NCBI GenBank assembly: GCA_963850305.1
Contig: CAWKKR010000001.1
Span: forward strand, 32,001 to 96,000
Length of the DNA: 64,000 nt
Reading direction: 5' to 3'
Origin: an uncultured delta proteobacterium
Lineage (GTDB): Bacteria; Myxococcota_A; Polyangia; Polyangiales; Polyangiaceae
Under the pieces are notes generated by a model, which ran no database searches, was not told the origin of the DNA, and worked only from the letters and a program-made list of their open reading frames with translations. The position numbers and the translations under genes were made by a program. Positions 405 to 15,537 of this stretch are shown here, in pieces (position 1 is the stretch's first letter; each line of letters begins with the position of its first letter).

Positions 405-1301
405 TTGTTGCTCTCGGTATTGAAGACCGTAGGATTGATCCTCGAGACGCCCAAGCTTCTCCTCAGCAGGACTCCCGTCAACTATTACGAGTCGCTGGGT
501 GACGACGTCGTCGAAGGCGAGCATCAGGGATTTGGAGACCCGAGCAAGCCCCTCTGGCTGAACCTCGGATTTTGGCAAACCGCTCGTTCTTACCCGGAAG
601 CGGCCACAGCGATGGCCCGCCTGCTTGCCGACGCCGCCCGACTCGGTCCCACCGACGAGTTACTCGATGTCGGCTTTGGCTACGCAGAACAGGACTTCTT
701 CTGGGTCGAGCACTTCGACGTCAAGAAGATCACGGGACTGAACATCACCCCCGTGCACGTGGAACGAGCCATGGCGCGCGTCAAGGAGCGCGGGCTCGAA
801 AGCAGGATGGACCTGCGTGTCGGCTCCGCCACCGAGATCCCCTTCCCTGACGCGTCGTTCGACAAGGTGACGGCGCTCGAGTGCGCCTTTCACTTCGATA
901 CGCGTCAGCGCTTCTTCGATGAAGCGTTCCGCGTCTTGCGCCCCGGAGGCAGATTGGCCCTTGCCGACGGCGGCCCCGTCCCGGGTCACAAGCCACTGAA
1001 CTTCCTCAATCGGATCGCGCTCAAGAGATGGTCCGTACCGTTCGAGAACTTTTACGACCGTGAAGAGTACGCGCGAAAACTCACGGCGGTCGGATTCACG
1101 GACGTTAACGTGGAGTCGATCCGAAATCACGTGTTCCCCGGATGCACCAAGTACGCGAGCCTGCGGAAGCAGGGGCGCTCGATGGCCGACGCGATCGTGG
1201 AACTCACCCAGGAAGAGATCGATCGCTGCGAGGGGATCGAGCAGTGGTCCCACATCGGCATGACGGATTACTTCGTCGCATCTGCGGAAAAGCCGCGTTG
1301 A
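405..1301 (+). CDS. Class I SAM-dependent methyltransferase (sterol/EryG-like)
   Basis: Motifs WLNLGFW, LLDVGFGYAEQ, ITGLNIT, PFPDASFDKVTALECAFHF, EAFRVLRPGGRL. RBS AGGAAGGA precedes a TTG start. Confidence 0.9.
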   Translation: MLLSVLKTVGLILETPKLLLSRTPVNYYESLGDDVVEGEHQGFGDPSKPLWLNLGFWQTARSYPEAATAMARLLADAARLGPTDELLDVGFGYAEQDFFWVEHFDVKKITGLNITPVHVERAMARVKERGLESRMDLRVGSATEIPFPDASFDKVTALECAFHFDTRQRFFDEAFRVLRPGGRLALADGGPVPGHKPLNFLNRIALKRWSVPFENFYDREEYARKLTAVGFTDVNVESIRNHVFPGCTKYASLRKQGRSMADAIVELTQEEIDRCEGIEQWSHIGMTDYFVASAEKPR

Positions 1302-1393
1302 GCGGCGGCACCACGGACACGGCCCGAGCGTCCTCGGAGGACGACTCGGCCGCGATCGGCGCCACGGGTAGCGAGGCGGCGCTGATCCGTCTC

Positions 1394-3133
1394 ATGCGGC
1401 TGCCGCGCCTGGGCGTATGGCTCGCGTTGATCGGCGTCGTCCTGACGGCGCCGAGTCTGTTCATCGGCTTCCACCTCGACGACTACGTCGGCCGATACAT
1501 TTACTCCGACCTCGCCGGCGCGAAGAAACTTTATCACGTCTACGTGGGCGGGTACGGCATCGCGACCGGGATTCCGGCCGAGACGCACTGGCAGATCGAG
1601 CAGGGTTACGCGCCCTGGTGGACGTATCCGAAGCTCCTCATCCGTCTGTGGCGTCCGCTGAGCCTCAGCACGCATCTTCTGGACGGGAAGCTCTGGCTCC
1701 ACAGCGCGTTCATGATGCACGCGCAGAACGTCTTCTGGTTTGCGCTCATGATCCTCGCCGCGACGCGCCTCTACCGCGGCATCATGGGACGGACCGTCGG
1801 CGGCCTTGCCTCGATCCTTTACGCTTTCGACCACACCCACGGTTTTCCCGTCGGCTTCATCTGCAACCGGCACGCGCTGATCACAGCGATGTTCGGGTCA
1901 CTCGCGCTCGATCAGTATTGCCGCGGAGCGACGGGCAACGTCCGCATGGCGCGCTGGCTCGGGCCGTTCGTCTATGCGTGTGCGCTCCTCTCGGGCGAAG
2001 CCGGCACCTCCGTGCTGATTTACGTCGCGGCGTACGCGCTCTTCGTCGAAGAGACCTCTCTGTCGAAGCGCGCGCGAGCGGTTCTTCCGTACTTCCTGGT
2101 GACGGTGTTGTGGCGGGCCGTGTACACACGAATGGGTTACGGCGCGAGCGGCTCAGGCTTGTACATCGATCCGGGGCGCGAACCGCTGCACTTTCTCTCC
2201 GCACTGCTCGTCCGCGGGCCCATCCTGCTCGTCGGCGAGCTCTTCGTCCCGCCTTCGGAGGCCTACATGCTCTCGAGCCCCGGAGTCGCCGCGGCGTTGC
2301 TGGTCTTCGCCGTGGTGTTCGTTCTGGCGCTTTCGGTCGCGCTGTTCCCGATCCTGAAGCGAAGTCGTGTGGCTCGATTCTGGTGCTGCGGGATGGTGTT
2401 GTCCGTGGTCCCGGCGAGCACGACGCACCCGAACAACCGACTTCTGTTCTTCTGCAGCCTCGGGGCCATGGGGCTCCTGGCGTCGCTGTGGGAGCTCTAC
2501 GCCATCGTGTTGCGTGACCTCGCGGTTCGCGGGGTCGCGTGGTTCTCGCGAGCGATGTCCGCGTTGCTCGTGTTCGTACACCTCGTGGTATCGCCTCTCG
2601 CTTTACCGGTGGTCGCGTGCAGCTTACTCTTCACGTTGCCGATAAAGCGCGCATTTGCCGATGTCGGCCCCGACGTCGAGGGTCGCGATGCGATCTTCGT
2701 GACCGCGCCGGACTACTACTCGGTGAAGCTCATGCCGATGCAGCGGCGTGTAGAGGGGTTACCCCTGCCTCGCCGCTGGCGTGTCCTCTCGTTCGGTCCG
2801 GAAGATATCCTGGTTCGCCGTACGGACTCTCGCACGCTCGTGCTCGACTACGATGGCGGGATCCTGTCGAGCCCACTCATGGAGCTCTACCGCGATCGAC
2901 GGATCCCCATGGCGCCGGGCGACACCGTGACGCTGAAGGGCTTGAAGATCGAGGTCCTCGAGGTAACGCCTCAGCACCTCGCGAGCGAGGTGCGATTCGC
3001 CTTCGATACGTCACTCGATTCGCCCTCGTTTCGATTCTACTACTGGGCGAAAAACCACTTCCATCCGTTCACGCCGCCCGCGATCGGCGCGAGCCAGCGC
3101 TTGCCCGGCGCACGCATCGACCTCGGGCTCTGA
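1394..3133 (+). CDS. Polytopic membrane protein, possibly GT-C-like glycosyltransferase
   Basis: Likely ATG at 1394 within the 663-aa ORF. GFHLDDY follows the first TM helix, then WRPLS and about 11 TM segments, with a soluble C-terminal domain. Confidence 0.6.
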   Translation: MRLPRLGVWLALIGVVLTAPSLFIGFHLDDYVGRYIYSDLAGAKKLYHVYVGGYGIATGIPAETHWQIEQGYAPWWTYPKLLIRLWRPLSLSTHLLDGKLWLHSAFMMHAQNVFWFALMILAATRLYRGIMGRTVGGLASILYAFDHTHGFPVGFICNRHALITAMFGSLALDQYCRGATGNVRMARWLGPFVYACALLSGEAGTSVLIYVAAYALFVEETSLSKRARAVLPYFLVTVLWRAVYTRMGYGASGSGLYIDPGREPLHFLSALLVRGPILLVGELFVPPSEAYMLSSPGVAAALLVFAVVFVLALSVALFPILKRSRVARFWCCGMVLSVVPASTTHPNNRLLFFCSLGAMGLLASLWELYAIVLRDLAVRGVAWFSRAMSALLVFVHLVVSPLALPVVACSLLFTLPIKRAFADVGPDVEGRDAIFVTAPDYYSVKLMPMQRRVEGLPLPRRWRVLSFGPEDILVRRTDSRTLVLDYDGGILSSPLMELYRDRRIPMAPGDTVTLKGLKIEVLEVTPQHLASEVRFAFDTSLDSPSFRFYYWAKNHFHPFTPPAIGASQRLPGARIDLGL

Positions 3134-3192: not shown

Positions 3193-4086
3193 TTAGATCC
3201 TGAGCAGCAACCCGGCGCTATGTCCGGCGAAGAACACGAAGCCACAGACGAAGAGCCACGTCACGCCATAGATCAGCTTCACGCGAGTCCAGTATTGAGC
3301 CACCCGGTCAGCGGCAAATGGAACGACGAGCGCCATGGCACTGATGACGGCGGCAATCGGATGCAGCGCGAGTGCGGCGAAGACCGTACACACGACCATC
3401 AGCACGCGCGCGAGCAGCAGCGTATGCGCCTTGCCCAGAACTACGCCTGTCGTTCGGACTCCCTCGACGGCGTCCTCGTCCGCATCGCGCATGACCTGAA
3501 TGGCCTCGAAGACCCCCGAGAACAAGCCGAGTTCGATGGCCATGCACCAACCAAGTCGGTCCTGCCATGGAAAGCCGCAGGCCGGCATCGCGAGGCCCCA
3601 GAGCATCATCGACGGCACGTCGAAGAATGGCTTTCGTTTGAGATGGGCGGAATACCAGACGCAGATGCCGCCACCGAACACGAGAGGAGCGAGCAACCCG
3701 ACGTCATGAACGAAGGCCGCCGCCACCAGCGCCGCCACCATCGCCCACTGCGCGAACAGGGCCGCGCCCTGGTGTTCGTTCAGAAACCGCGTCTTCTTCG
3801 AATCCTTGCCCGTCGACTGCATGTCGAGCGCAACGTCGATGTAATCGTTGTTGAGATAGACGAGCACATTGAGCACGAGCGCGAACGCCGTGCGAAAGAC
3901 GACGTCCGACCCCCTCAGATGCAGGGCTACGGCGATGGACGTCGCCGCCGCGAGGTTCGCCATCTCGAGCTTTTTCAGCCGGTACGCGAGGACGTCGATG
4001 ACGATGCGAGCAGCAGCGAACATGTTCTCGGAGAAATCCTGATGATGACGCGGCGCGCCGCTATCGCCGGATTTCCAAGATATCAT
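3193..4086 (-). CDS. UbiA family prenyltransferase
   Basis: Asp-rich motifs NNDYIDVALD and RDADEDAVEGVRTT; multiple TM helices. Confidence 0.8.
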   Translation of the reverse strand: MISWKSGDSGAPRHHQDFSENMFAAARIVIDVLAYRLKKLEMANLAAATSIAVALHLRGSDVVFRTAFALVLNVLVYLNNDYIDVALDMQSTGKDSKKTRFLNEHQGAALFAQWAMVAALVAAAFVHDVGLLAPLVFGGGICVWYSAHLKRKPFFDVPSMMLWGLAMPACGFPWQDRLGWCMAIELGLFSGVFEAIQVMRDADEDAVEGVRTTGVVLGKAHTLLLARVLMVVCTVFAALALHPIAAVISAMALVVPFAADRVAQYWTRVKLIYGVTWLFVCGFVFFAGHSAGLLLRI

Positions 4087-4175: not shown

Positions 4176-5153
4176 CTAGCTTTCCCCCAGATGCGCTTCT
4201 CGCCGCCCGAAGTGCTGCCATATCCACACAACGGCACCCGCACCGGTCACCGGAACCCATTGAACGACTCGATATAGAAGTGCGAACGCGAGCGAGCCCT
4301 CTCGACTCACGCCCAGCGCGATGAAGCCCAGAGACGCCCCCGCCTCGAGGGCGCCAAAGTGCGCGGGTGTGGATGGGATGGCTATCGCGACGTTGACCGC
4401 TGCGTAGACCACCAGGCAACCGCGGAGGTCACTTTCGATCCCCAGGCTGCGAGCGCAAAAGTAGATGAGTGCCACGTCGAGCGCGTCGGCGAGAATCGAC
4501 CATACGAAGGCTCGCAGCACCGCGGCCCGGCGCGGCCACCGCAGCGGTCGACGCGACGCAAATCGCGCTTCTTGCATGGCGCGAAGCCCCCGTCGGATGA
4601 GCCAAATGAGGATGGGTAGGCCAAGCACGGCCACGCCAAGCATCACGAACGACAGTCGCCCATGATGAATCGCCGTTGCTAGAACGGGAGCGGTGCAGGC
4701 GACGAGGCTCGTCCCCTCGACGGCCTTTTCGATCAACTGCGCAAAGGCAACCGGCAGCACAGAGTAACCGCGCGACGTGAAGTACCTGGTCCGCACGAAA
4801 TCCCCGGCACGCAACGGCAGGACGTTGTTGGCGGCGTGGTTCAGCAGGACCGCGGCAACGAAGCCGCTACGGGGCACACTCGCATGCGGTGCCCTGTCGA
4901 GTAGCTCGGTAAAGCGGAGGCCCCGACACACGATGTTGAGCGCGAGCAGCGGAACCGTAGCGAGCAAGAGCTCCATGCGCGCTCCGCGCAGGACCTGGGC
5001 TACCCGCGCAAATGAGACCGCTCCCACGACGAAGGCCAGCCCCACGCCAACCGCTCCCGCCGCCGCCCACCGCAAAACTCCCGCCCCGCGCGGGCGCCAC
5101 GCCGGTCGGCTCGACGTGGCGCCCGCTTTCGGACCGCGGCTCTCATCGGTCAG
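4176..5153 (-). CDS. Lysylphosphatidylglycerol synthase TM / flippase-like (UPF0104) protein
   Basis: C-terminal third of the 903-aa ORF: NNVLPLRAGDFVR, IEKAVE, IPSTPAHFGALEAG, LLYRVVQW. Start is approximate. Confidence 0.8.
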   Translation of the reverse strand: MTDESRGPKAGATSSRPAWRPRGAGVLRWAAAGAVGVGLAFVVGAVSFARVAQVLRGARMELLLATVPLLALNIVCRGLRFTELLDRAPHASVPRSGFVAAVLLNHAANNVLPLRAGDFVRTRYFTSRGYSVLPVAFAQLIEKAVEGTSLVACTAPVLATAIHHGRLSFVMLGVAVLGLPILIWLIRRGLRAMQEARFASRRPLRWPRRAAVLRAFVWSILADALDVALIYFCARSLGIESDLRGCLVVYAAVNVAIAIPSTPAHFGALEAGASLGFIALGVSREGSLAFALLYRVVQWVPVTGAGAVVWIWQHFGRREAHLGES

Positions 5154-5963
5154 AACGCGCTTGATCCTTTCGACGCGTTCGCGACGCCCGTTCCGAGGGA
5201 CGGGCCGCCGACGTTGAAGCGCGCCTGCAACCCACCGAAGAGGAAGAAGTTGACCCGCGGGTCTCCGACGTTCGAAAAGGTGGACACGCCCGGCCCTTCG
5301 CGACTCAGAAAGATTCGACGTGTCTCCGCCCACGACGGGCGCGACCGCGACTCCCCGGGTCATTCGAAAGTCCGCACCGAGCTCAACGCGGGCGAGTTCA
5401 AGCCCGAGGAGCGACGTGTTCGCTCCGTGATCCGGCGCAATCCACAGTCCTCGCATACCGGATGACAGCGAGAGCCATGGGTCGATTGCGTAGGACGGAC
5501 GGAAATGGAAATCTGCTTCCAGTCCTGCCGTCGCCGAACGGAGTTCGGTACCGGCAGCGGACAGATCGCCGCGGGAGAACTCCGATCCGGTTCCGTAGAC
5601 GCCCAGCAGAAAATGAGGCGTGAATCGGTACCCGATGGCGGCCTGAACGGTGCCTCCGGGCCCGGAAAGATCGCTCATGGTCGGGAGATGGCCACCCACG
5701 TCCCCGAGGCCCTGACCATAGCCGGCGCCGATCTGAAGCTCGACTGCCTTCCGGACCGGCATCACATAGTGATCCAGTTTGTCCGAGTTACCTACACCGG
5801 TGTCGCCGGTGGTCGCATACGTCGTATCGACGGTCCCGGGCACCGGAGGGGGCACGACGGCACTCTGGCCGTCGTGCGTCACCCAGGGTTCCTGAGCCTT
5901 CGCACCGCGCGCCGAGGTGACGATCACGAACGCACTGAGCACGGTTACGGCTTCGATCTTCAT
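5150..5963 (-). CDS. Outer-membrane beta-barrel protein (apparent frameshift near 5316)
   Basis: RBS AGGAGG, ATG 5963, signal peptide MKIEAVTVL..AKA and amphipathic beta strands. The shifted frame continues IFLSREG...NFFLFGGLQARFNVGG to TGA at 5150-5152. Confidence 0.7.
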
Positions 5964-6312
5964 GGCGAACCTCCTTGGTTTCGTCGAAACGAACATCGCG
6001 TTCTCGAGGCCGAACGCATGACAGAACGTTCGGCTGATTCCGATCCTCGTGTCGACCGTGCCTACTCCTGCAAACCGCGCGCCCCACGCAGGAGCCGGGC
6101 ATCGAACGACGGAATCACGTGCCGGCGCTCCCGCTTGCCTACGGCGCGCCGGCCTCCGCCGTCGCCAGGAAAGGGCGCCACCATTTGTCCCGACTCGCGA
6201 CGCATCGCGGCCGAACGTCTCGATGCCCAATCGGAGCCGGAACCCTTCGACCCGCGCGTTCACTTCGCTCCGTGACGAGCGATTCATCGAAAATCGCGGG
6301 CAGCGCGCGACC

Positions 6313-6401: not shown

Positions 6402-7453
6402 ATGCTGAAGGGCGCCATCGTCGGCTACGGATTCATCGCCGAAAACGGGCACGCGCCGGCCTACCTGGTGACTGCGAACGGGAGCACGCCGATGGAGATC
6501 GTGGCCATCGCGGACCCATGTTTGCCCCGCCTCGTGAAGGCGGCTTTGGATCGTCCCAACGCGCGGCTTTACGAGGACTACCGGACGCTGTTCGAGCGCG
6601 AACGTGATCTCGACTTCGTCGACGTCACGACGCCGCCGTCGGAGCACGCCGCGATCGCGCACGCGGCGTTCGATCGAGGGCTGCACGTCTATTGCGAGAA
6701 GCCGATCGCAACTCGCGCCATGGACGCGCGCGGCATGATCGAGCACGCGAAACGGGCGCGCCGGGTACTGTTCCCGTCCCACAACTACAAGCACGCCCCG
6801 GCCGTGCGTGCCGTGAGGCGCGCCATCGATGGCGGTCTCGTCGGACGCGTCCACCTCGTGACGCTGCAAACGTTTCGGAGCACCCACGCACTGGGGGTGC
6901 CGGAGTGGCGACCTGACTGGCGCCGCGAGCGGCGCTTTTCAGGGGGTGGCGTGGCGATGGACCACGGAAGCCACACGTTCTATCTCGCCTTCGACTGGCT
7001 CGGCTCATTCCCGACCTCCATCACCGCCAAGACCTCCTCCCTCGGCCTTCACGACACGGAGGACGATTGGCCTGCACCGTCACCTTCCCGAACGGCGTCG
7101 CTACCGCGTACCTCACGTGGAACGCCGGGATCCGGAAGGTGATCTACACGGTACATGGAGACCAGGGAGCCGTCCGCGTCGAAGACGACGACGTGGAGGT
7201 GTCCATCATGGGCACCACGAGAGACGGCAAGCAGACGTGGGAACGGCGGCCCGAGCACCTGTGCTCGGATTGGATGGACGCGAGCCATGTCAATTGGTTC
7301 GGATCCGTCTTCAAGAAGTTCGCGGAAGCGATCGAGCACCGCGAATACGTGGGACGCGATGCCGTGGAGGGGCTCAGGTCCGTCGAACTGATCGAAGCCG
7401 CTTACGAGTCGGCGCGGCAGAATTCCAGGGAGCTGCCGCTTCTCCGGAACTGA
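6402..7453 (+). CDS. Gfo/Idh/MocA family oxidoreductase (apparent frameshift near 7068)
   Basis: Motifs GAIVGYGFIA, DVTTPPSEH, HVYCEKP, GGGVAMDHGSH. The C-terminal half is in ORF 7067-7453. Confidence 0.9.
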
Positions 7454-7460
7454 GAGGTAA

Positions 7461-8279
7461 ATGATGTTGGACGTCTGTTCGGCCGCGTCGTTGCTCGCCG
7501 CATGCATGATTGTGCGGCTCGCCTACGCTGGTCGATCCACGCTGTACGGGCCACTCCGGGTCGAACGCCTGGAAACCACGAGTGCGTCGCCACTGCTCCG
7601 AAAGCCGACGATGGAAGCCGCGTACTGGGTCCTCGCTCCTTTCGCGAGGATGCTCGTCCGAAGTGGCGTGTCCGCGAACGGAGTCACGGCCGCTTCGCTG
7701 GCGTTCGGCTCGCTGGCGGGCCTGGCGCTGGCGTACGGGCATTTCGGGGTTGCAGGCGCGCTGGCCACGATCTCGGCACTCTCGGACGCTGTGGACGGTT
7801 TCGTCGCTCGCGAAACGCAGACGGCGTCCGAAGCCGGCGAGCTCTTCGACGCTACCGCCGATCGTTACAACGAGTTTTTCTTTCTCGCCGGGGCCTCCGT
7901 CCTCGTCCATGACAGCGTGCCGGGGTTGTTGCTGGTCCTGTTGACCGTGCACGGCTCCTTCATGGTCAGCTACGCAACGACGAAAGCCGAAGCCCTGCGA
8001 CTCGACGCGCCGCGCGGCTGGATGCGTCGACCCGAACGCGCCACATACCTGACGGCGGGCGCCGTCCTCTCCGCGCTCGCCCCTGTCGATTCGGGCATCC
8101 CCGGCATCCCCTGGCCGATGGTCCTGTCACTGCTCGTCGTGGGCGTCGGCTCGAACGTGTCCGCGGTTCGTCGCCTGATGCATGTCGCGCGGGCCTCAAC
8201 GGACCGGCAGCGTCGGGCCGTCGTCCCGGGAGACCATGGGCCTCGTGCGGTGGCCACGGCGATCAGGTCGAACGCATGA
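7461..8279 (+). CDS. CDP-alcohol phosphatidyltransferase (PIP synthase-like)
   Basis: Signature DAVDGFVAR-x8-GELFDATADR; MVSYATTKAE..GWMRRPER resembles the PI/PIP synthase subgroup. Confidence 0.9.
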   Translation: MMLDVCSAASLLAACMIVRLAYAGRSTLYGPLRVERLETTSASPLLRKPTMEAAYWVLAPFARMLVRSGVSANGVTAASLAFGSLAGLALAYGHFGVAGALATISALSDAVDGFVARETQTASEAGELFDATADRYNEFFFLAGASVLVHDSVPGLLLVLLTVHGSFMVSYATTKAEALRLDAPRGWMRRPERATYLTAGAVLSALAPVDSGIPGIPWPMVLSLLVVGVGSNVSAVRRLMHVARASTDRQRRAVVPGDHGPRAVATAIRSNA

Positions 8280-9643
8280 CTCCTCGCCACCCCCGCAATC
8301 AGGAGGCCCACCTCCGCACCCAGGTACCAGGGCCGAACAGCCGCGCCTTGCGACAGCGAGAAGATGCACATATCGCTCCGGGACTCCAAAACTACGCCGT
8401 GCTCGCGGGCATCACGGCGGAGCGCGCCGAGGGCAGCGCCATCACCGACGTCGATGGGAATACCTTCCTCGATTTCGTCGGCGGCATCGGCGTCAACGCG
8501 CTGGGTCACTGTCATCCGTCGGTCGTCTCCGCGCTCGTCGAACAGGCGACGAAGATCAGCGTTGGTTCGCTCACGAGCGAACCACGCGTGCGTCTGCTCG
8601 AAACTCTGGCGCGCCATGCTCCTGGAGGGACGCTGCACCGGGCTCAACTCTATTCGAGCGGCGCCGAAGCCGTGGAGAGCGCCCTGAGGCTCGCCAAGTC
8701 GCACACTGGCAAGTTCGAGTTCGTGAGCTTCTGGGGCGGCTTTCACGGCAAGACGCAGGGAACGTTGTCGCTCATGGGCAACGCGGGCAAGGCAGGATTC
8801 GGCCCGGCCAGCCCGGGCTCGAACGTCGTTCCTTATGCCGACTGCTACCGCTGTCCCCTCGCCCTATCGTATCCGTCGTGCGGCCTCGGCTGTGCGGACC
8901 TAGTCCGGAAGCAGCTCAGGGCGTCCTCCAGCGGCGCGATCGCCGCCTTCGTGGTCGAGCCGATGCAAGGCACCGCCGGAAACGTGGTGCCGCCGAACGA
9001 GTTTTTGCCGGCAATTCACGAGATCGCGAGGGAACACGACGCGTTGCTGATCGTCGACGAAATGCTCACCGGGTTCGGACGGACCGGCGAATATTGGGGC
9101 AGCGATCACAGCGGCGTCGCGCCCGACATCGTCACGATCGGGAAAGCCTTTGGCGGCGGATTTCCGATCTCCGCGGTCCTCACCGGCGACTCCATCGCGA
9201 GCGCCAAACCCTGGTCGTTACCCTCGGGTTCGTCTTCGAGCTACGGCGGAAACGCCCTCGGCGCAGCCGCTGGCGCCGCCGCGCTGCGAACAATCGATGA
9301 AGAAGGGCTCGTCGAAAACTCACGACACGTCGGCGCACGGATGCTCGCCGAGCTCGAGCCGTTCGCGGAACGCTACTCGTTCGTCGGGAAGGTCTGCGGG
9401 CGTGGCCTTTTTCTGTCCCTCGAACTCGTCCGGGACAAGAAGACGAAAGAACCCCTGGATCGGCGGAGCACCGAGAGGATCTTCCACGAGTGCCTCCGCC
9501 GGGGCCTGCTGACGATGTCCTACTCGCCGCATTTCCGGATGCAGCCGGCGCTCACCATCGACGTCGACACCGCGCTGAACGGCATAGCAATTTTGCGCGA
9601 GGTCTTCGATCGCTTCGACGAGCAGCGCTCCACGGGCGCATGA
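8276..9643 (+). CDS. Class III PLP-dependent aminotransferase
   Basis: Motifs SGAEAVE, GGFHGKT, VEPMQG, DEMLTGFGRTG, PDIVTIGKAFGGG. ATGA overlap with the upstream gene. Confidence 0.92.
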   Translation: MTPRHPRNQEAHLRTQVPGPNSRALRQREDAHIAPGLQNYAVLAGITAERAEGSAITDVDGNTFLDFVGGIGVNALGHCHPSVVSALVEQATKISVGSLTSEPRVRLLETLARHAPGGTLHRAQLYSSGAEAVESALRLAKSHTGKFEFVSFWGGFHGKTQGTLSLMGNAGKAGFGPASPGSNVVPYADCYRCPLALSYPSCGLGCADLVRKQLRASSSGAIAAFVVEPMQGTAGNVVPPNEFLPAIHEIAREHDALLIVDEMLTGFGRTGEYWGSDHSGVAPDIVTIGKAFGGGFPISAVLTGDSIASAKPWSLPSGSSSSYGGNALGAAAGAAALRTIDEEGLVENSRHVGARMLAELEPFAERYSFVGKVCGRGLFLSLELVRDKKTKEPLDRRSTERIFHECLRRGLLTMSYSPHFRMQPALTIDVDTALNGIAILREVFDRFDEQRSTGA

Positions 9644-10646
9644 CGTCGGCACCTGACTCGGTCGTGGCAGCGTGGCGACGGCTGCGGAGCCACGTGCGCA
9701 CGCTCTGGCCGCGAAGACCGCTCCTGCCGGCAGTCCCGTTCGTGGGCTGGACGATCGTTTCGCTCGTGCGGGGACCGGTACGCTGGGAAATACTGGTGCT
9801 CGGCCTCTTCGGTCTCATCACGCCGTACGTGGGGCCGCGCACGAAGAAACTCTACCTCGGACTGATGCCCGCGGCCCTCGTCGCCGTGCTCTACGACGCG
9901 ATGGGACTCGTGAAAGACGTCGGGCTCGACCCGGAGCGGATCCATCTCTGCGACCTTCGCGAGTTCGAGATCCGCTGGTTTGGCGTCACGGTCAACGGCT
10001 CCCTCACCACGGTGCACGACCTGCTCGAAGCGCACGCGACGCTCCCGCTGGACCTCTTCTTCTCGATCCCCTACGGCACATTCCTCTTCGCGATCGTTCT
10101 CTTCGCCGTCTTCGCTTACTTCGTGGACTACCGGGCGATGCGAAGGTTCACGTGGGGATTTCTTGCGCTCAACGTCGCGAGCTTCGTCACGTATCACATC
10201 TATCCTGCCGCACCTCCTTGGTACTACCACGCACATGGCTGTATCGCAGACCTCGCGACGAAGGCGAGCGAGGGACCGAACCTCGCGCGCGTGGACGCCT
10301 GGCTGGGTGTCTCGTACTTTCGAAGCTTCTACGGACGCTCGAGCGACGTCTTCGGCGCGGTGCCCTCCCTGCATGTCGCCTATCCGCTTCTCATCTTGCT
10401 CGAGGGGTGGCCGCTCTTCGCACGGCTCCGACACCTCAAGTGGCCACTCTGCGGGTTCAGCGCATTTTCTTGGTATGGATGTGCGCAGCCGCCATCTATC
10501 TCGATCACCATTGGGTGATAGACGTGATCGTCGGGCTGCTGTACGGCCTCATTGCCTTCGCTACGCTCCGCATGGCCATCCCGCTCCGCCGTCCCGTCGC
10601 GCTCGTCGCGGGAGACACCCCCGTCGTCGAACCCGTCTCGAAATGA
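9640..10646 (+). CDS. PAP2 superfamily, inositol phosphorylceramide synthase (AUR1)-like (apparent frameshift near 10460)
   Basis: YPAAPPWY and FGAVPSLHVAY, with YLDHHWVID in the shifted frame, match AUR1-type catalytic motifs. ATGA overlap with the upstream gene. Confidence 0.85.
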
Positions 10647-11911: not shown

Positions 11912-11965
11912 GCCCTTACGTTATCATCGAGGCCCTTGCCGCCAAAGCGGCGGGCGCTCCCGGCC

Positions 11966-14900
11966 TTACCGAAGCTCTGCGACGGAATCGCCAAAAAGGC
12001 GCTCTAGGCTGGCAAGCATGGCGTCGCTCGGGTCCACGCGCGCTCCCTCGATTGCGAGGACGGCACGCCCGCCCTCCGGCAGCGACAGAACCAGATCTGA
12101 CCGGACAGGCCCCGGGAGAGTCGAGGAGCAGCTGGCGGAGGTTGCGGAGCTGCTCGGTTCGCGTCCCGTCGGCATCCAGATGAATCAGGACTGCGCGCGT
12201 CGCTTTTCGAACAGCGTCGGAGAGTGGCACGACCTCGTCCACCAGCAATGTCGGTTCGGCTTCGTCGTCGGCCTCGTCCGTGATCGGAAAACTGACCTTG
12301 CCGGTCACGAGCACGGGATCGCCGCTCGAAAGGAGCGGCCCATACGCGTCGATCCTGTCTTGCCGGACCTTCGCCTTGACCCTCCCCGACATGTCCTCGA
12401 CCTCGAAGAACGCAACCTTCCCACCCGACCCGCCCTTGAAGAGCTTCTCCTGATAGTTTTCGATCATTCCGGCGACCGTCACGGCGCTCCACGCTTCCTG
12501 CTCCGTCACCTTGATCGCCGGGAGCGCACCGATGCGACCGAGCTTGTCGCCGTATCGAAGGAGCGGGTGCCCGGAGACGTAACAGCCTAGCGCCTGCCTT
12601 TCCTTTCCGAGGAGCGTCACCCGATCCCACTGTTCGACGTCGGGATAGTCATCGAGACCCGCGGCGGTTTCCTTCCCGTTCTTGTCCGCCTTGGGAGCGG
12701 CGGCGTCGAAGAGCCCGAAGAGCGTCGTCTGTCCACGCTCGCGATCCCGGCTCGCGCTGCGCGATCGCTCGAGCGCGCGGTCGACCGCCGCGTACGCGCG
12801 CGCGCGAGTGATCCCCATCGGACCGAGCATCGAGTCGAACGCACCGCACTGCACGAGCGCCTCGAGTACGCCCTTGTTCAGCCGCTTCGCGTCCACGCGA
12901 ACGGCGAAATCGAAGAGATCCAGGAACGGGCCCCCGGCCGTGCGCGCCTCGAACACGGTCTCGAGCGCCGCCTCGCCCGAGCCCGCGCACGGCGCCGAGC
13001 CCGAAGCGGATTTGCGGCCTGAAGCGATCTCGCAGGCGTCCTGGCCCGCGCGGGGGGCCCGTGCCGTCGGGCGCGCATAGACGACGGTGAAGTCGGTGTC
13101 GCTCGCGTTGACGTCGGGCGGCAGCACGCTGACGCCCCAGGTCGCGCGCCTCGGCGATCGTGCGCACGACCTTCTCGATCTTGTCCTTGTCCGCCGTGAG
13201 GAGCGCGGCGAAAAACTCCGCCGGGTAGTGCGCCTTCAGGTACGCGGTCTGGTACGTGATGAGCGCGTACGCCGCCGAGTGGCTCTTGTTGAAGCCGTAG
13301 CCCGCGAAGCACTCGAGCTCCCCGAAGATGGCGCGCGCTTGCTCCTCGGTCACGCCGTTGCCTTTCGCGCCGTGCACGAAGGCAGCCTTCTGCTTCGCCA
13401 TCTCCTCTGGCTTCTTCTTGCCCATCGCGCGGCGGAGGAGATCGGCGCCGCCGAGCGTGTAGCCGCGCGAGCTGCTGCGCGATCTGCATGACCTGCTCTT
13501 GGTAGACGATGACGCCGTAGGTCGGCGCGAGCACTCGTCGACGAGCGCGTGCAGCTTCCGGATCGGCTTTCGGCCGTGCTTGCCGCTCGACGAAGTCGTC
13601 GACCATGCCCGTGCCGAGCGGGCCCGGGCGGTAGAGCGCGACGGCGGCGACGATGTCCTCGAAGCAGTCGGGCTTCAGGCCGCGAAGAGCTGCTGCATGC
13701 CGCTCGACTCGAGCTGGAACACGCCCTTCGTCTCGCCGCTGGAAACGAGCGCGTACGTGTCCCTGTCGTCGAGCGGGAATCCGGTTCACGTCGAGCAGCC
13801 GACCCACGGCGGTCGGGCCGCGCGTTGACGAGGCGCTCGGCGATGTCGATGACCGTCAGCGTCTTCAGGCCGAGGAAGTCGAACTTGACGAGGCCCGCGG
13901 CCTCGACGTCGTCCTTGTAGTACTGCGTGACGATGGCGGCGCCGCTCGTGAAGCACGGCACGTGGGTGTCGAGCGGGCCTTCGCTGATGACGACGCCGGC
14001 GGCGTGCATGCCCGCGTGGCGCGTGAGGCCCTCGAGCTTCTTCGCCTGATCGAGGAGCTCGTTCACGCGCGGGTCGGTCTCTGCGAGCGTCTTCAGCTTG
14101 GGCTCGAGGTCGAGCGCCTCGTCGATCGTGTACATCTTGCCCTGGCCCTTCTCGGGACGAGGCTCGCGATCCGCTGCGCCTCGGGCGGCGCGATCCCCAT
14201 CGCGCGCGCCACGTCCTTGATGACGCTGCGCGCCTTCAGGTTCTGGAACGTCGCGATCTGCCCGACGCTCGTCTTGCCGTACTTCTCGCCGACGTAGACG
14301 ATGACCTCGTCCCGCCGCTCCATGCAGAAGTCGATGTCGAAGTCGGGCATGCTCACGCGCTCCGGGTTGAGGAAGCGCTCGAAGAGCAGGTTGTAGGGGA
14401 TGGGATCGAGGTCGGTGATGTCGCATCGCGTACGCGACGAGGGAGCCGGCGCCCGAGCCGCGGCCCGGACCGACGGGGATACGCCGGTCCTTCGCGTCGC
14501 GGATGAAGTCCCAGACGATGAGGAAGTACCCCGGGAACTTCATCCCGACGATGACGTCGAGCTCCGTTTCGAGCCGCTTGCGGTACGCTTCCTCGTCGAT
14601 CGAACGGCCCACTTCCCGGAACTCGGAGAACCGTCGCTCGAGTCCGTCCCGGGCGACGTGGCGGAAGTAGCCCTCCACGTCGTAACCCTCCGGCACGGGG
14701 AAGTGCGGGAGCATCGGGCTGCCGAGCGAGAGCTGAATCCCGAGCACATCTCCGCGACGCGGAGCGTGTTCCGGAGCGCGTCCGGCCGATCGCGGAAACG
14801 CCGCGCTCATCTCCGCCGGCGACTTCAGATACATCTCGAAGCGCCCGTGGTGGTACCGCTTCGCGTCTTCGTATCGGCGGTTCAGGCGAATGCACTCGAG

Positions 14901-15537
14901 GTAGAGCTGCGCCTCGCCGTCCTCCTGGTTCATGAACTGGACGTCGTTCGTCGCGACGACCGGCAGATCGAGCTTCTTCGCCGCACGCTCCAGGATCCCG
15001 TTGATCACGGGCTGCTCGGGCAAGCCATGGTCCTGGAGCTCGACGAACAGTGCCCCTGGGTCGAACCGCGCCGCCAGCTCCGCGAGCGTCTGCTCGGCGG
15101 CCTGCTCGCCGTGCTGGCAGACGGCCTGAGGCATGATGCCGCCGAGGCAGCCCGTGAGGGCGACGATACCCTTCGTGCGTGCAACGACGTCGTCCATCGT
15201 CACGGTCGGGACCGTCTGACCTGCGCCCTCGAACCCGAGGGAGACGAGCTTGATGAGATTCTGATAACCCTCGGCGGACGCTGCCAGCAGCACGAGGTGA
15301 TTCGGGTGCTCTCCCGCGGATTCGGGCGACATTGAGCTCGCAGCCTACGATCGGCTGGACCCCTGCCGCCTTGCACTCCTTCGAATGCTTCACGGCACCG
15401 AACATGTTCCCGAGATCCGTCAGCGCGACGGCCGTCATCCCTCGCTCACGGACCCGCTTCGGCAGCTCCGGCAGCTTCACGGTACTGACGAGGAACGAGT
15501 ATTGCGAATGAACGTGGAGGTGGACGAACTCCGACAC
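11966..15537 (-). CDS. dnaE: DNA polymerase III alpha subunit (multiple apparent frameshifts)
   Basis: [67 protein letters not shown] and an OB fold, spread over several minus-strand frames. Confidence 0.95.

Follow-up and report, generated by a model that had tools for sequence, protein, structure and literature searches.

A conserved operon of Polyangiaceae that joins an inositol-lipid gene set to a dehydrogenase–aminotransferase pair, predicted to make an amino-inositol lipid

The genes behind bacterial inositol lipids have become known only recently. The closest described system is the BT_1522-1526 cluster of Bacteroides, which, according to the main text of Heaver et al. 2022 (PMC9246714), comprises an AUR1-like phosphatidylinositol (PI)-dihydroceramide synthase, a phosphatidylinositol phosphate (PIP) synthase, a GtrA protein, a PgpA-type PIP phosphatase, and the myo-inositol phosphate synthase MIPS. 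For Bacteroides vulgatus and Prevotella, an alternative cluster for inositol lipids has been proposed, its route being itself putative, with an NTP transferase, a CDP-alcohol transferase, and a HAD protein (same main text, PMC9246714). Here, we describe a four-gene operon at positions 6402-10646 of a 64-kb stretch of DNA (the window, meaning the whole stretch analysed) from an uncultured member of the Polyangiaceae. The operon is real and conserved, and consists of a bacterial PI/PI-ceramide cluster plus an amination module. Judging from its sequence, it is likely to make an amino-inositol lipid by one order of steps or another; the order that we favour, as fairly likely, is that an amino-deoxy-inositol phosphate is made first, then attached to diacylglycerol and, in this copy, probably passed to ceramide.

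The operon and the described inositol-lipid clusters

The operon holds the following features, its four genes being co-oriented:

6402-7453, + strand: Gfo/Idh/MocA NAD-dependent dehydrogenase, in two pieces (6402-7142 and 7067-7453); PF22725; PF01408 (8.8e-20) and PF02894 across the two pieces
7454-7460, + strand: 7-bp gap at the dehydrogenase/synthase junction, with a GAGG ribosome-binding-like sequence
7461-8279, + strand: PIP-synthase-like CDP-alcohol phosphatidyltransferase of 272 aa; PF01066
8276-9643, + strand: class III aminotransferase dependent on pyridoxal phosphate (PLP), 455 aa, intact; PF00202 (1.8e-94)
9640-10646, + strand: AUR1/BT_1522-like PAP2_3 head-group transferase, frameshifted; PF14378 (1.2e-11)

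This layout of four co-oriented genes with a 7-bp gap and two ATGA overlaps (8276-8279 between synthase and aminotransferase, and 9640-9643 between aminotransferase and AUR1-like gene) had been reported in a preliminary description of the window, and the coordinates confirm it. Both lipid-forming components of the Bacteroides cluster are thus present, the PIP synthase (BT_1523-like) and the AUR1-like enzyme (BT_1522-like, here frameshifted), although both fall far under the BT_1523 and BT_1522 family cut-offs. MIPS, PgpA, GtrA, and MMPL genes lie outside this copy of the operon, elsewhere in the genome, whereas the operons of relatives contain GtrA, PgpA, MMPL, and sometimes MIPS. Apart from MMPL and the dehydrogenase–aminotransferase pair, those operons hold the same gene set as BT_1522-1526; dehydrogenase, aminotransferase, and MMPL are words absent from the main text describing the Bacteroides cluster (PMC9246714). 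Compared to the alternative B. vulgatus/Prevotella cluster, the window operon uses the PIP-synthase route.

The preliminary description had stated that no bacterial pathway of this kind was known. This view holds for the amination module but not for the rest, as a route to PI and PI-ceramide through a PIP synthase and an AUR1-like enzyme has been described for BT_1523 and BT_1522 in the main text of PMC9246714. The new part is therefore the dehydrogenase–aminotransferase module, the PI/PI-ceramide backbone being already known. Neither an amino-inositol phospholipid or sphingolipid nor this operon was found in the literature searched, most subscription papers lying outside the reach of that search.

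A first survey covered 40 relatives, 17 of them with an AUR1-like match. All four genes occur together in six of these 17 other genomes, the remaining AUR1-bearing relatives holding a plain module of synthase and AUR1-like gene, and one of them an AUR1-like gene but no detected synthase. Since the gene set recurs in 6/17 AUR1-bearing relatives, it is not a product of chance. A scan of GTDB with an aminotransferase alignment then gave at least 582 relatives, whose best 80 loci (many ending at contig edges) were compared. These loci hold the synthase in 72 cases and the dehydrogenase in 70, followed by GtrA (58), PgpA (42), MMPL (37), AUR1-like genes (29, two of them weak), and MIPS (12). On these counts, dehydrogenase, synthase, and aminotransferase form the core and AUR1 is optional, which makes a glycerolipid the more likely core product and transfer to ceramide an optional step. 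The neighbourhood comparison called for in the preliminary description has thus found the synteny conserved, both among the AUR1-bearing relatives and among the best 80 loci.

The closest named records of the scan are metagenome-assembled genomes of Polyangiaceae and other Myxococcota. Carriers among the best 80 loci are Myxococcota, together with records titled Binatia, Gemmatimonas, Pseudobdellovibrionaceae, and Acidobacteriota. The distribution of the aminotransferase is patchy (7/41 near genomes, and 10/301 in a sample of the phylum). Other recurrent neighbours were rejected as members of the operon: the trp genes and a serine hydroxymethyltransferase-like gene, recognised by eye, looked like lineage-specific synteny, and another neighbour belongs to the heme-type radical S-adenosylmethionine (SAM) proteins.

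Two variants of the arrangement were also observed. L206:5959-9591 has the aminotransferase and dehydrogenase but no synthase, and what may be an LPG_synthase_TM gene, judged by eye, comes next. In L159:4997-8164, synthase and aminotransferase are followed by a radical SAM/SPASM gene where the dehydrogenase would be, a possible alternative oxidant. Separately, MMPL-PgpA fusions of 943-1009 aa in the plain inositol-lipid operons of L038, L040, and L041 tie the phosphatase to the exporter.

The synthase, its glutamate, and the order of steps

The top NCBIfam models for the synthase are archaetidylinositol phosphate and PIP synthases and BT_1523, all under cut-off (BT_1523 at 81.3 versus 350), and PIP synthases are its best PDB matches both by sequence and by fold (model pLDDT of 92.9; TM-score of about 0.6 on the query). 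The CDP-alcohol transferase motif D1xxD2GxxAR...G2xxxD3xxxD4 is present, with D109, D112, G113, A116, R117, G126, D130, and D134 invariant in the alignment. At about 25% identity, the protein shares with PgsA1 of Mycobacterium tuberculosis and the PIP synthase of Renibacterium (6H59, 6WMV, 5D92) the fold, the signature motif, and the residues R94, S132, Y133, R152, R155, and R195 (PgsA1 numbering). Five of these, R94, S132, R152, R155, and R195, are given as the inositol-phosphate-binding residues of PgsA1 in the part of the structural literature consulted (PMC6506517). Their equivalents in the window synthase are R135, S170, R190, R193, and R238. Among 70 linked copies (that is, copies beside the aminotransferase, after dropping three duplicate loci and open reading frames under 180 residues), the equivalents of R94, R155, and R195 are kept in 70/70, and those of S132 and R152 in 69/70.

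Despite this similarity, the operon synthases differ from PgsA1 and the Renibacterium enzyme at three positions. They hold Glu at A86 (E127 in the window; 82/82), Thr or Ser at K135 (T173; T/S in 80/82), and Lys at R137, so that neither the small A86 nor the basic K135 is kept. K135 is, however, comparatively tolerant of mutation in PgsA1, as far as the same source was consulted (PMC6506517).

The position of this Glu, immediately after G2 of the motif (G2+1), was surveyed in 142 loci, which comprised 82 synthases beside the aminotransferase and 48 others. Glu is found at G2+1 in 82/82 linked synthases versus 1/48 others, and the sole Glu-bearing exception, L207, adjoins an aminotransferase cut by the contig end. 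In quick trees, the linked synthases form their own clade (SH-aLRT of 98 and 99). Nested in this clade are five synthases (G034, G042, G103, G108, and G207) from synthase-AUR1-PgpA-MMPL operons without the pair, which hold A, A, K, Q, and Q at G2+1, respectively; no orthologue of the aminotransferase was found in these five genomes, whose completeness is 95-100%. No position other than E127 is both invariant in the linked copies and lost in all five pair-less members of the clade. A divergent aminotransferase in G167, with no dehydrogenase adjoining, neighbours a synthase from outside the clade, and this synthase has the Glu. Such a pattern suggests that the synthase has co-adapted to the dehydrogenase–aminotransferase pair. 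The Glu at G2+1 of eukaryotic CHPT1 has been proposed to act on the acceptor alcohol in the part of PMC10182977 consulted. We infer that Glu127 of the synthase pairs with an amine on its acceptor, and amination would therefore precede attachment to the lipid.

Several points weigh against this reading of the Glu. Many close kin are included in the counts, the losses of Glu reduce to some three or four events (supports inside the clade of 80-91), and the pocket position of the residue comes from the alignment.

The company kept by the pair also bears on the order of steps. A more distant branch of the aminotransferase–dehydrogenase pair lies behind a DIPPS-like transferase, a HAD hydrolase, and an NTP transferase in genome G116 and in metagenome locus L201, the same set as in the alternative B. 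vulgatus/Prevotella cluster, which Heaver et al. propose in their main text as a CDP-inositol route (PMC9246714). The use of the pair by both the PIP-synthase and the CDP-inositol routes fits a soluble inositol-phosphate substrate. The arrangement is seen in L165:3456-9294 (G116) and L198-L203, where the aminotransferase, mostly followed by the dehydrogenase, stands behind the NTP transferase and a 285-aa protein without Pfam or NCBIfam match, the HAD and DIPPS-like genes preceding them where the contig reaches.

An amino-inositol lipid could also arise in another order, either if completed PI or PIP were aminated in the membrane, or if the amine were introduced ahead of cyclisation, so that MIPS would close the ring of an amino-glucose phosphate. 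The likeness of the dehydrogenase to hexose dehydrogenases would fit the variant before cyclisation, and a second, plain synthase encoded in this genome could supply PI. Nevertheless, a Glu that tracks the pair is not expected in a synthase that met only plain inositol phosphate, the intermediate shared with the CDP-inositol route is soluble, and the dehydrogenase is modelled as a soluble alpha/beta protein. We consider these other orders unlikely.

In the favoured order, MIPS, encoded outside the window, would make myo-inositol phosphate, of which the dehydrogenase would oxidise one ring hydroxyl to a ketone, and the class III aminotransferase would turn this ketone into amino-deoxy-inositol phosphate. 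The synthase, a PIP-type enzyme by family with a predicted substrate, would then join the product to CDP-diacylglycerol, Glu127 pairing with the new amine. A PgpA-type phosphatase, whose gene lies elsewhere in the genome, would remove the ring phosphate to yield zwitterionic phosphatidyl-aminoinositol, and the AUR1-like enzyme, likewise assigned by family and with ceramide as its putative acceptor, would move the head group to ceramide where the lineage keeps the gene. The GtrA and MMPL proteins of relatives probably flip and export the lipid. For this scheme in its entirety (a soluble pair making amino-deoxy-inositol phosphate, a co-adapted PIP synthase making phosphatidyl-aminoinositol, and an AUR1-like enzyme making aminoinositol-phosphoceramide in Polyangiaceae and Myxococcaceae, altogether an undescribed class of zwitterionic lipids in several phyla), we put the chances at about even.

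The dehydrogenase–aminotransferase pair and the nature of the head group

The dehydrogenase is 41-71% identical to intact copies in six relatives and reaches no NCBIfam cut-off. By fold, it comes closest to sugar and inositol dehydrogenases (about 22% identity), with levoglucosan dehydrogenase as the top match, and neither the fold search nor the sequence search discriminated its substrate. In the aminotransferase, the PLP lysine K290, together with D261, K159, T233, M263, W313, and S319-S322, is invariant in 93/93 orthologues.

The aminotransferase is the point at which a reading as catabolic passengers has to be weighed, with the operon making ordinary PI or PI-ceramide and the pair belonging to amine or sugar catabolism, for instance through a transaminase of 4-aminobutyrate (GABA) or ornithine. 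In its favour, database names read '4-aminobutyrate aminotransferase', and GABA and acetylornithine transaminases head its PDB and NCBIfam matches. However, no NCBIfam cut-off is reached (best 344.6 versus 552; TIGR00700 at 262.2 versus 506.65; PRK06058 at 292.4 versus 639). Compared to the GABA transaminase GabT (4ATP), the protein keeps the class III fold, K290, D261, and R421, but HGR has become HGK, QGEGG has become QGTAG, and DEVQ has become DEML, and a poly-Ser loop has been added. In GabT, the Arg of HGR binds the substrate carboxylate, and the Glu of QGEGG takes part in a Glu-Arg switch. The gene is moreover patchy, overlaps its lipid-gene neighbours, and co-varies with the synthase Glu. 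These features support the view that the enzyme is not a canonical GABA transaminase; the preliminary description had named an enzyme acting only on GABA or ornithine as a finding that would speak against its proposal, and the altered GabT residues, the invariance of K159, T233, and M263 in 93/93, and the cut-off scores point away from it. The passenger explanation is largely refuted, and we regard it as very improbable.

The same description had called a Gfo/Idh/MocA dehydrogenase with a PLP aminotransferase the standard logic for making an amino-cyclitol. Such a pair is present, but with an aminotransferase of the less usual class. The inosose aminotransferases StsC and BtrR belong to the DegT/DnrJ/EryC1/StrS family, and PF01041 (DegT-type) is not matched by the operon enzyme, which matches PF00202 only. 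Among the neighbours of Gfo/Idh/MocA enzymes, DegT-type aminotransferases are far commoner than class III (15,139 versus 1,236 occurrences; PMC10949010). A related case is hygromycin A, where Hyg17 and Hyg8 have been proposed to aminate myo-inositol, and only Hyg17 has been assayed, being active on myo-inositol (PMC10949010). Compared by description, the Hyg18/Hyg25/Hyg17/Hyg8 branch and our system both hold MIPS, a Gfo/Idh/MocA dehydrogenase, and an aminotransferase, and in both, an amine is proposed to take the place of an inositol hydroxyl, but the Hyg product is an antibiotic moiety made from free inositol and not a lipid. We take Hyg8 to be a class III enzyme as well. The paper and its supplement say just 'aminotransferase' (PMC10949010).

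The head group is very likely inositol-based, to judge from the synthase site and the distribution of MIPS. This genome has MIPS, as do 33/34 operon-bearing genomes (hand-picked, with long flanks) versus 189/301 in the phylum sample, and in some linked lineages MIPS lies directly upstream of the dehydrogenase or the operon. Some results weigh against inositol as the substrate: MIPS is widespread in the phylum anyway (63%) and adjacent in only 12/80 of the best loci; the dehydrogenase is no nearer to inositol than to other sugar dehydrogenases (an intact relative scores 65.7 against IolG, TIGR04380, cut-off 355); and the best matches of the aminotransferase are GABA transaminases, racemases, and dialkylglycine decarboxylase, none of them a cyclitol enzyme.

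These results leave some room for a non-cyclitol amino head group, attached by the synthase all the same. The pair could make an amino-sugar phosphate from glucose-6-phosphate, following the logic of NtdC/NtdA, or an open-chain amino-polyol phosphate, of which the aminopentanetetrol lipids are an example. Hexose dehydrogenases such as levoglucosan dehydrogenase are the nearest folds and families of the dehydrogenase, class III aminotransferases often act on aldehydes, and the synthase pocket is unlike that of plain copies at several positions (A131, T173). On the other hand, the phosphate-site residues of PIP synthases are kept, MIPS stands directly upstream of the synthase in three pair-less operons of the same clade (G042, G103, and G108; four of the five such loci were judged), and linked loci likewise have it immediately before the dehydrogenase or the operon. 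We therefore hold a head group of this kind to be improbable, and an inositol-based one remains preferred.

Three further loci of this genome, all outside the operon, concern inositol metabolism. G000:C6:124935-129650 (L036) comprises MMPL, a synthase-GtrA fusion with Ala at G2+1, and an AUR1-like gene; this module probably provides the organism with ordinary PI and PI-ceramide in addition. In G000:C1:123271-127649 (L042), two genes run divergently from an intact MIPS, one for an NTP transferase and the other for an IPCT-like NTP transferase carrying a fused HisC/CobD-like PLP domain, possibly another head-group pathway. G000:C8:125161-132162 (L043), outside the window, holds a second, frameshift-riddled MIPS, followed by an aminotransferase, membrane genes, and the MMPL gene that comes closest (55%) to the MMPL in the operons of relatives. 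By eye, we take the L043 aminotransferase to be of the DegT/StsC type, and this locus may be a second amino-inositol lipid route that uses the other aminotransferase family.

The ceramide step, the state of this copy, and what the lipid would mean

The sole NCBIfam match of the AUR1-like protein is NF052609, PI-dihydroceramide synthase (1.4e-33; 116.6 bits versus a cut-off of 480). PAAPPWY, PSLH, and H..D motifs are common to the window protein and its relatives. The AUR1 catalytic His of PSLH (H245) is found in 31/32 linked copies and H..D in 30/32. Of the three motifs noted in the preliminary description, PAAPPWY and FGAVPSLH are read in the frame that starts at 9640; the third, YLDHHWVID, is present but in another frame, beyond the frameshift. 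Among the AUR1-like residues, none convincingly tracks the pair (one position, W49, 28/32).

As for the acceptor, this genome has a gene resembling serine palmitoyltransferase (SPT), which scores 449.5 bits against NF047600 (cut-off 640) and has a GNAT-family gene (L194:2669-3799) after it, and Spt and bacterial ceramide synthase genes are often clustered, according to the part of PMC11334938 consulted. A GNAT match was obtained in 18/18 genomes with AUR1 in the operon versus 1/22 without it, two sets that differ in lineage, the query coming from the first. Ceramide phosphoinositol is cited for Myxococcus xanthus in the main text of PMC9246714. Against transfer to ceramide stand the putative nature of the ceramide-synthase role of GNAT and the fact that its distribution goes with lineage; the lack of a GNAT match in three of the 22 genomes without operon AUR1 that have an AUR1-like gene at another place; and the SPT search, in which NF047600 at 1e-90 matched 7/12 AUR1-bearing versus 5/22 AUR1-lacking genomes, controls such as E. 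coli matching too. In that search, 2/34 genomes exceeded 400 bits and none reached the NF047600 cut-off. Whether the AUR1-like enzyme transfers the amino head group to ceramide thus appears evenly balanced. The proposal of an amino-inositol lipid with onward transfer to ceramide, put forward in the preliminary description, gains from the synteny, the inositol-type synthase, and the co-varying Glu, and is weakened in its ceramide part by the AUR1-like gene being optional (29/80 best loci).

Two genes of this copy, as that description did not mention, are interrupted by one-base frameshifts, one near 7064 in the dehydrogenase and another near 10465 in the AUR1-like gene, each a single-base loss in a short T run. 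Both genes are single-frame in relatives, and further genes of the same assembly are broken in like manner, so the frameshifts are likely sequencing errors. Elsewhere in the window, at least four overlapping frames at 11916-15537 (- strand), presumably dnaE as recognised by eye, are a further sign of assembly indel errors. Were the frameshifts genuine, the pathway would be real in relatives and this copy would be decaying. Two of the four genes are broken, GtrA, PgpA, and MMPL are gone from the operon, and the synthase sits on a long branch (0.89-0.98), all of which would fit decay. Yet both breaks are single-base losses in T runs of an assembly whose other genes are split likewise, the key residues are all kept on either side of each break, and PgpA, GtrA, and MMPL genes lie elsewhere in the genome. 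Decay is, in our judgement, quite improbable, and we keep to sequencing error.

A scan for promoters and terminators yielded no promoter-like and two terminator-like sites, not above shuffled sequence. Upstream and divergent, the frame at 4176-6000 (- strand) matches PF03706 LPG_synthase_TM (3e-33) and is apparently joined to an outer-membrane-like protein (by eye); an LPG-synthase homologue, BT_1521, also flanks the Bacteroides cluster, as its main description states (PMC9246714). The LPG_synthase_TM gene (4179 to about 5100) was rejected as a member of the operon because of its weak linkage, with relatives in 5/80 best loci, two of these being profile seeds. Three further frames, all absent beside the operon in relatives, encode a SAM methyltransferase (405-1301), a hydrophobic protein of 663 aa without Pfam or NCBIfam match (1142-3133), and a UbiA-family prenyltransferase (3193-4086, - strand).

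If the pathway operates as proposed, amination of the inositol head group would make a zwitterion of an anionic lipid. Bacteroides that had lost inositol lipids were more resistant to the cationic peptide LL-37, as reported in the main text of PMC9246714, and amination could hence keep the lipid yet drop its net charge. The head group would be isomeric with hexosamine phosphate, and could therefore hide among 'unknown aminophospholipids' or be misassigned in lipidomics. A function would also be provided for a large clade of class III aminotransferases now labelled GABA transaminases, and CDP-alcohol transferases would gain a one-residue specificity switch, where Glu at G2+1 would predict the lipid from sequence. 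The claim is directly testable, as the cultured Minicystis rosea, Pendulispora albinea, and P. brunnea have the aminotransferase gene, at 70-71% identity.

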